In this document: one piece after another, positions 3,501 through 4,713 of the stretch | How positions within the stretch are numbered: the stretch's first letter is position 1 | How the letters are laid out: each line of letters begins with the position of its first letter | Assembly (NCBI GenBank): GCA_044892525.1 | Contig: CM097885.1 | Coordinates: 27,034,001-27,098,000, forward strand | DNA: 64,000 nt | DNA from: Schmidtea polychroa | Lineage: Eukaryota | Reading direction: 5' to 3' | Notes under the pieces: generated by a model | The model's database searches: none | Seen by the model: the letters and a program-made list of their open reading frames with translations, nothing else | Told to the model about the DNA's origin: nothing | Program-made: the position numbers and the translations under genes

Positions 3501-4660
3501 TTTTTAACGTTAATTATTGCATGTTTTAATTTTAAAGCCGATGGGGTTTTTATATAGCTATGTCCGGATAATCTACTAACGGGTGCGTATTTCGTTAAAA
3601 TAAAATCTATTTCTAAAATATTCACTACTTGCCACCCGCTTCCTAAATAGGTGAATTGCTCAATCTTTTCATTTAATTTGCTCACCCCCTCGTTTATAAA
3701 GTTTGATGTAAAAACTTGAGCATTGTTTGAAAAATAATTATCCCGGATCTCCCCATCTTTTTCAAATTTAATTAAAATTGTGAATTGTATTTTTACATTG
3801 CCCATCTTTTCTATTTCCTCTATTAATCTATCTTCAATTTTTGATGTTAGGGCTATTTTAACCAGGTTTTGATTTCTTATATTAAATTTTAATGTTTTAC
3901 GTGATCCATTCAAATCGGATTCTACCGTAGGTTCAAACAAAGAGCCGCCTATTTGAAATATGTTGAAAGACGTTGAAGCTACACATTCATCATTGATGAC
4001 TATCACTTCTTGTTGTGTAATGGGTGCTTGTTGTGTAATGGGTGCGTGTTGTGTAAATGATGTTGAAGCTACACATTCATCTTTGCTGATGACTATCACT
4101 TCACGTCGCGATAATTTATTAGGAATGCAATTTTTAATTAAACCAGCAGGTCTTTTAATAGAATCTTTTTTAATATTTATAATATCTTTTTTAATAATAT
4201 TTATAGTATCTTTTTTAATAATATCTTTATAATCTGTTTTTTCTTTAATAATATTTTTTTTAATATTTTTTAAATCTTTTTTAATATCTTTTTTTATATC
4301 TTTTTTAATAGTATTTTTTGGTAAATTTTTTGATAAATTTTTTTGTAATTTTTTATTTATTTTTTTAAATAAAACATTTTTTGATATAGAAAATTGCCCT
4401 AAGTGGCAATGATGTTTATTAAAAAATTCCCTATATTTTATTTTTTCGCTCGTTACACATTTGGGGCATATAAAAAAGTTGAGCGAATTAAACGTCTTTT
4501 TGTAGTATTTCCTCATTGTGCGATGACATTTATCGCTATGTCCATTTGCAGCTTGGCAATAATTTGGGTATAGTTTACCTGTTAAATAATAAAATTAAAG
4601 TTTTATTTTTTTTTTTTCTAATTGTTATTAATTGTTACATCTATAAGGATTTATCATCAT
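539..4660 (-). CDS. Protein-primed family B DNA polymerase with endonuclease VII-like Zn domain
   Basis: Exonuclease motifs YADFES, HNLRGYD, YLKLDV; polymerase motifs YIDINNLYG, KLYNNSLYGK, GDTDS; CxxC..VRDHCHFTG..CxxCN. ORF track gives 539-4516; inferred 5' exon 4639-4660 (MMINPYR) and 60-nt GT-AG intron 4579-4638 join in frame. Confidence 0.97.
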
Positions 4661-4713
4661 TTGTTATTTAATTCAAATGAACTATATAACAAATGATGAT
4701 AAATCCTTATAGA
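4640..4713. repeat. Perfect 28-bp inverted repeat with 18-nt spacer overlapping the inferred polB start
   Basis: TCTATAAGGATTTATCATCATTTGTTAT (4640-4667) and ATAACAAATGATGATAAATCCTTATAGA (4686-4713). Confidence 0.97.

Follow-up and report, generated by a model that had tools for sequence, protein, structure and literature searches.

A conserved palindromic hairpin, most likely within the last intron of the polymerase gene, in a Polinton family of Schmidtea polychroa

The window analysed was a stretch of 64,000 nt of Schmidtea polychroa DNA (GenBank assembly GCA_044892525.1, contig CM097885.1, forward-strand positions 27,034,001 to 27,098,000), and the genome searched was an AT-rich animal genome of 781 Mb. 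The left part of the window holds most of a complete Polinton/Maverick with terminal inverted repeats (TIRs) of ∼1.2 kb, 5'-AG...CT-3' ends and identical 6-bp flanks (Table 1). Its genes encode a protein-primed-type family B polymerase (pPolB), protease, integrase, ATPase, a probable capsid protein and a TBP-like protein. The packaging ATPase (Pox_A32) and adenain-type protease (Peptidase_C5) both scored above the Pfam cut-off. The integrase at 10410-11561 gave an rve match (E 1.2e-5) and a chromodomain match, both under the curated cut-off. The capsid candidate at 7816-9033 matched clusters at 0.98, one of them with PF21738 on 15% of its members, and had no Pfam match; judged from its sequence it is a probable double jelly-roll capsid. 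The TBP-like gene (12799-13263, plus strand) matched PF00352 with E 1e-15. The motif TATAAACA precedes the ATPase gene, several other core genes and the polymerase leader described below.

The element has in common with Polintons/Mavericks (adintoviruses) a length of 15-20 kb, long TIRs, a 6-bp target-site duplication, pPolB, integrase, packaging ATPase and adenain-type protease, and it is a Polinton by every defining feature tested except the capsid fold. Intact vertebrate Mavericks are described as intronless in the available text of PMC8097293, whereas the polymerase gene here appears to carry spliced leader exons and a hairpin. The core genes of this element are not all intronless: a conserved Zn-motif coding stretch upstream of the first in-frame ATG (4516) needs a splice. 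Intronlessness is a descriptive and not a defining feature of Polintons, and membership stands.

Table 1. Features of the element and of its polymerase gene. Positions are those of the window; a slash marks a splice junction.
Feature	Position	Strand	Remarks
Polinton/Maverick, 19,483 bp	1..17463		Starts 2,020 bp left of the window
Main pPolB exon	539..4578	-	Zn-binding C/H motif, SIM-like stretches, EndoVII-like domain, family B polymerase motifs
Splice acceptor AG of main pPolB exon	4579..4580	-	Position common to two sister families
Inferred last intron, 1,682 nt	4579..6260	-	Mostly 0.7-1.7 kb in other copies; contains tandem repeats and hairpin
AATAAA, possible poly(A) signal for leader-only mRNA	4602..4607	-	In 129 of 134 contexts
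Possible alternative 22-nt first exon	4639..4660	-	Donor GT at 4638; putative use
Hairpin, downstream arm	4640..4667		With ATG ATG at 4660
Hairpin, spacer of 18 nt	4668..4685		6 extra pairs and 4-nt loop; reverse-complemented in 39 of 134 contexts
Hairpin, upstream arm (polymerase sense)	4686..4713		With CTATAAG and acceptor-like AAG/GA at 4707-4706
Unpaired flank	4714..4730	-	No shared substitution; putative branch-point-like TTAAC with a pyrimidine stretch, or else TATA-like TATATTAA
Six 9-mers that differ by one mismatch from the terminal sequence of the element	4754..5352	+	Tandem repeats adjoining the hairpin
Leader exon 5 (acidic)	6261..6425	-	Phase-1 end at T/GTAAG
Leader exon 4 (SIM-like, acidic)	6473..6586	-	Phase 1-1
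Leader exon 3 (SIM-like)	6633..6710	-	Phase 1-1; duplicated in copy L124
Leader exon 2, 63 nt	6757..6819	-	Phase 1-1; conserved across lineages
Leader exon 1, coding part	6870..6915	-	Likely main start codon at 6915
Likely promoter	6983..7076	-	CCAAT boxes at 7076 and 7023, TATAAACA at 6990
Right terminal inverted repeat	16234..17463		93.6% to left TIR; followed by 6-bp target-site duplication

The perfect 28-bp hairpin of the original prediction was found as described, with arms that are exact reverse complements, and the other landmarks it named (the ATG ATG, the GT at 4638, the AG at 4580-4579 and a minus-strand CTATAAG, located at 4712-4706) were all in place. With the extra pairs of the spacer the hairpin becomes a 74-nt near-palindrome with a stem of ∼35 bp. 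Polymerase-sense RNA folded at -49.5 kcal/mol (z = -9.5), a value equalled by 0 of 200 shuffles, and was stabler than the antisense fold in 7 of the 8 commonest haplotypes. Among the matches listed, this is the sole perfect inverted repeat of at least 17 bp once the TIR tandem array and (AT)n runs are set aside. The genome carries 458 occurrences of the hairpin core, and at least 2 of the 50 sites listed were unrelated. Copies were compared in 134 distinct contexts of 820 nt, which were chosen and not drawn at random; identical copies were merged and a few were counted twice. The hairpin is a conserved palindrome of one Polinton family and is retained in every lineage of that family.

The polymerase open reading frame (P0001) has its closest relatives at 43-57% identity, several with PF03175; no PolB model of Pfam matched the frame itself, no chain in the PDB matched its profile, and its EndoVII-like domain lies under the Pfam cut-off. 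Upstream of 4594 the frame is closed and has no ATG, and a splice is therefore required. The earlier proposal that the gene is spliced, with its acceptor at 4579, proved correct: the stretch 4578-4516 is coding-like and sister families share the position. Between 4578 and the first in-frame ATG (4516) third positions vary across lineages and the Cys and His codons are constant. The stretch forms part of a C-x6-C..H..C..C-x2-C..H-x2-H motif present in 27 relatives, and relatives carry a Cys six residues ahead of the second Cys. An atlas search with the N-terminal motif returned scores under 0.9, and a word search for longer homologs found none. Two matches to the start of the main exon that lacked the preceding G were considered as intron-less copies and rejected, both being acceptor point mutants. 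At 4578 the acceptor directly precedes a donor-like CAG/GTAAAC, the top donor score of the region, which reads GTAGAC or GTATAC in other lineages. The first 210 nt of the main exon (4578-4369) diverge between lineages ∼3 times as much as the core (10% and 3.4%), and the lineages are mosaics across this boundary.

Five leader exons were recognised upstream, with four introns of 46-50 nt, all in phase 1. The leader stays open and exon-symmetric across lineages, with 5 of 11 parses clean and the other 6 having missed or misplaced an intron. Its acidic motifs resemble SUMO-interacting motifs (SIMs); a Pfam search with two of the exons gave no match. The T/GTAAG donor is present in 17 of the 18 loci with an exon-5 match (20 examined), and the 18th locus has this donor too. 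No conserved frame reads through past this donor, and the leader must therefore splice on. The donor is within reach in 94 of the 121 contexts with at least 1,550 nt upstream. The last base of the leader is T in 96/96 copies parsed, which together with the GT of the main exon gives a conserved first Cys in every lineage. One copy (L110), with an element end 421 nt upstream of the acceptor, was considered as a leaderless lineage and rejected, as the leader donor persists in 7 of the 9 contexts that share its arm type; the element end is read as a private insertion.

Two parts of the original prediction were not upheld as the main reading. It had set the hairpin over the polymerase start codon, but the acceptor at 4579 is better matched by an upstream leader that has a likely promoter of its own and, at 6260, a conserved phase-1 donor. 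It had also taken 4638 as the first polymerase donor; the leader ends in T in all copies parsed, whereas the 22-nt mini-exon gives Ser in 37 of 131. Transcription probably starts near 6960 and translation at 6915, and the splice from 6260 to 4579 would complete the first Cys of the Zn motif and a protein of 1,501 aa. The hairpin then most likely lies within the 1.7-kb last intron of a six-exon polymerase gene. No splice joints over 4400-4830 were listed among the contigs of 4 of 12 sequencing runs. One 60-nt X1 contig, RNA by guess, covers 4521-4578 with its last 2 letters unaligned where either splice exits, and is not counted as evidence; the X1 contigs have zero cover over 4580-4744, which proves nothing. 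A splice-site matrix, over-fitted and derived from an imperfect parse that supplied 22 acceptors and 14 donors, scored 4706, 4579, 6260 and 4638 all far under its training sites and failed to separate the donors 6260 and 4638.

Related elements were compared at the same position. In families 3 and 4, which belong to this genome too and are ∼42-44% identical along the compared portion, the acceptor falls at the same codon. The nearest donor is T/GTAAGT in 24 of 25 matches at 18 loci, which represent two families and not 25 independent cases, and it lies 204-206 or ∼1,420 nt upstream of the acceptor. Neither the hairpin nor the mini-exon was found in these families; the best inverted repeat was at most 11 bp, A+T-rich and by estimate at chance level, and the folds gave z = 0.79 and -1.84. 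In family 2 (L057-L076) the best repeat among the loci listed was 9 bp. The hairpin is thus missing from three related families; such an absence, together with disuse of exon 1, had been named in the original prediction as telling against it. Among metagenome relatives, 23 of 80 loci were examined, of which 3 had no match and 2 of the 20 others had an 11- or 13-bp repeat, several having little upstream DNA; a search of viral contigs gave 2 distant loci. Two coding leader exons precede the 4579-type junction in family 3 (L189-L192) and three in family 4 (L193-L206), where mirror pairs also occur. Many family 2 copies are head-to-head pairs, and in this family the start codon is apparently split (A/TG) by a 50-nt intron behind two CCAAT boxes and a TATA box.

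Variation was scored as sites with a shared variant in 120 contexts. The arms had 5 such sites of 56, compared with 26/42 four-fold sites of the core (p 3e-8), 15/57 sites of the upstream flank (p 0.025) and 41/142 second codon positions (p 0.003), the p-values assuming independent sites though the lineages recombine. A further four-fold set gave 10/17. The arms did not surpass the 3' end of the intron in conservation (4/26, p 0.45). In 12 representatives divergence averaged 2.5% in the arms, 6.1% in the flank and 12-30% at four-fold sites. The block of low variation runs from 4730 to 4640, that is 17 nt past the stem, and variation climbs sharply on either side. The hairpin occurred as 26 haplotypes with five shared arm variants, all one-sided and 3 of them mismatches. 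Compensatory changes, which had been suggested as a check, were not found: none of the 26 haplotypes had a two-sided change, a count of low power with only 5 shared arm variants. The hairpin sequence is likely to be under constraint, which in the absence of covariation gives no proof that it is the pairing that is preserved. New here are the arm variation far below that of four-fold sites, the lack of compensatory changes and the occurrence of both loop orientations.

Where the spacer is reverse-complemented, all six differing positions swap together and the arms are unchanged. Copies of arm type A number 269 in the orientation of the window and 5 flipped genome-wide; arm type B, with 79 copies genome-wide, was flipped in 34 of 37 sampled. 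When the 245 nt downstream were used to build a tree (91 rows), the orientation changed twice on it, with flipped A at the base of a flipped B clade. Perfect arms would therefore be ancestral, with one flip first and decay of B afterwards, the unflipped B copies needing a second flip or a short conversion; this order is only inferred because the lineages recombine. In parvoviruses and poxviruses the terminal hairpins flip and flop between two loop isomers that are reverse complements, whereas the present hairpin is internal and its orientation is inherited by lineage (269:5 in type A) and not remade at each replication. Spacer inversion and arm homogenisation are known outcomes of polymerase template switching at inverted repeats, according to the portion of PMC8604942 available. 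That yeast system and the present one have in common arms of >9 bp, an exactly reverse-complemented spacer and reversible events, and its arm-extending change is paralleled here by A4668T, found in one lineage (12 contexts). The yeast spacers are of 2-5 bp and lie in genes, whereas the spacer here has 18 nt and belongs to a non-coding part of a multi-copy element. Inversion of the loop is likely to be a by-product of template switching between the arms and not a switch. Template switching accounts for both orientations, not for the constraint, and the two orientations, spread over hundreds of copies, amount to a natural archive of such switching in elements of this kind.

For the constraint, the explanation tentatively preferred is that the hairpin folds in the pre-mRNA and steers the choice of 3' splice site in favour of the polymerase splice. 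The upstream arm would supply, at 4706, a competing acceptor whose branch-point-like flank is invariant. A splice from 6260 to 4706 would create a stop at the junction (T/GA) and leave the 155-aa acidic leader alone, on an mRNA that would end at the 4607 AATAAA. Once folded, the stem would conceal 4706, two other AGs and the ATG ATG, and would so favour the splice to 4579. By the splice-site matrix the acceptors 4706 and 4579 score similarly, second and third best in 6300-4400. Against the acceptor at 4706, its AG is lost in arm type B, where an AG at 4641 would give T/AA instead, which may be chance. Against a role for the stem, sister families manage without it, and a TATA box fits the conserved flank (4730-4714) as well as a branch point does. 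Splice steering is held at somewhat less than an even chance because type B lacks the 4706 AG, the stem does not occur in the sister families and the matrix performs poorly. A poison exon of 43 nt that would begin from the 4682 AG was rejected, with the worst score (-10.5) and absence from flipped copies.

In adenovirus E2B, as given in the accessible part of PMC11304566, the polymerase mRNA is made from common upstream exons that a long splice connects to the terminal coding exon, and acceptors compete. The present gene, as predicted, is alike in its upstream exons, long splice to the polymerase exon and competing acceptors; it differs in having for a leader an acidic, SIM-like coding region of 155 aa, and that part of PMC11304566 carries no mention of control by a hairpin. 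A local stem lowers splice-site use in the excerpts available of PMC2794156 and PMC7812871, which concern a stem-loop at the murine leukemia virus 5' splice site and an aptamer placed over an alternative 3' site. The stem here differs in being a near-perfect palindrome without covariation whose competing acceptor is only predicted. It is rather doubtful that the likeness extends to a one-promoter programme of the adenovirus kind, in which the hairpin decides between a stand-alone five-exon SIM protein and its fusion to the polymerase. If true, this would be a built-in RNA replication switch in a Polinton, and the RING protein that the element encodes might act alongside it against SUMO-based silencing by the host. 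A constrained hairpin where the leader ends or joins the polymerase is a precise target: the predicted junctions 6260/4579, 6260/4706 and 4638/4579 and one poly(A) site. If the hairpin is neutral, the finding reduces to the spliced leader.

To our knowledge the control of the polymerase in Polintons is essentially undescribed. No report of an internal hairpin or a spliced polymerase in animal Polintons was found in the limited literature covered. Within their available text PMC8097293 and PMC8502044 mention neither hairpins nor splicing, and that of PMC10748475 mentions no hairpin and splicing only for group I introns.

The mini-exon would regain a place if a second isoform were made from an internal core promoter (TATA-like at 4728 or 4711, initiator at 4678 in the loop), giving a short mRNA that opens with the 22-nt exon. 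This is unlikely, as is its corollary that the stem buries the AUG only in read-through RNA. The exon does continue the reading frame of the main exon. Its ATGATG and GT are kept in 131 of 134 contexts, its intron of 49-63 nt resembles the other introns of the element, and its T/GT junction encodes Cys in 93 of 131; in type B that Cys is lost and another is gained two codons earlier. The TCA at 4680-4678 is unchanged by the loop flip, many relatives start a few residues ahead of the Cys, and the proximal promoter and 50-nt start-codon intron of family 2 offer a precedent. However, neither CCAAT nor TATAAACA occurs within 2.3 kb upstream (6983 to 4660), unlike at the leader and several other genes, all 4 of the exon's shared changes alter an amino acid, 37 of 131 contexts yield Ser for Cys, families 3 and 4 do without any such exon, and the leader donor requires a downstream acceptor regardless. 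A palindromic protein-binding site or a cruciform acting at the DNA level in replication or packaging, beside internal copies of the terminal sequence, is improbable. Sequence conservation of both arms without covariation and the exchange of arms at the DNA level that loop inversion implies are consistent with it, as are the six terminus-like 9-mers at 4754-5352, which are tandem copies and not independent, and the EndoVII-like domain of the polymerase, itself below the cut-off. Against it, the hairpin is internal and not terminal, its orientation is inherited (269 against 5 in type A) and changes only twice on the tree, none of 5 matches checked proved to be a mirror element with the loop at its centre, both head-to-head pairs examined (L042, L043) turn elsewhere, and the sister families have no hairpin.

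An intronic small-RNA precursor, whether pre-miRNA-like or an siRNA hairpin, is quite improbable. The ∼35-bp stem of the 74-nt hairpin is near the length of a Drosha substrate and agrees with the single stem of ∼33-35 bp in 60-80 nt typical of a pre-miRNA, and 4 of the 5 shared arm variants fall in its basal 11 bp. But the 3 Rfam matches were all far below gathering scores (best 30 against 83 bits), either candidate seed, at its presumed position, is altered in at least one lineage (by the change at 4698 or by the loop flip), and the candidate mature strands are ∼85% AU. A mirtron is opposed by hairpin ends that miss both splice sites, the acceptor lying 60 nt beyond one end and the donor 1.5 kb ahead of the other. 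Neither the small-RNA precursor nor the single-stranded DNA replication signal that the original prediction had offered as alternatives thus gained positive support. The stem may instead be a neutral scar, in which template switching produced an inverted duplication that a recent sweep carried through the family and that is now slowly decaying, though this too is hardly probable. The hairpin is family-specific and lacks covariation, the 79-copy lineage tolerates two broken pairs and the flip, the lineages are recombinant mosaics in which one block can be young, and spacer inversion with arm homogenisation is known (PMC8604942, in the part available). A scar does not account for the sharp rise of variation on either side of 4730-4640, and homogenisation alone should, by reasoning, leave changes common to both arms, of which none was found in the 26 haplotypes.

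Several further features of the element were recorded. Left of the window and adjoining the left TIR lies a gene (L031:7193-7741, minus strand) with a C-terminal RING finger (PF13920, E 1.5e-9); together with the SIM-like leader it recalls, presumably, the two halves of a SUMO-targeted ubiquitin ligase. The TIR at 16590-17350 is dense in TGAGTCA/TGACTCA and TGACCTTGA words in both orientations, which we take to resemble AP-1 and nuclear-receptor sites. An (AAT)n tract at 11030-11100, in frame in the integrase reading frame, reads as poly-Ile and is probably an intron. A semi-palindromic GC-rich repeat unit at 143-301 and 4873-5430 flanks the polymerase gene in direct orientation within (AAT)n tracts. 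At L053:1830-2060 and 2520-2600 tandem mini-elements consist of the hairpin, 250 nt of polymerase, the right element end, (ACT)n and (AAT)n, an arrangement that suggests lengthening of the terminus by slippage.
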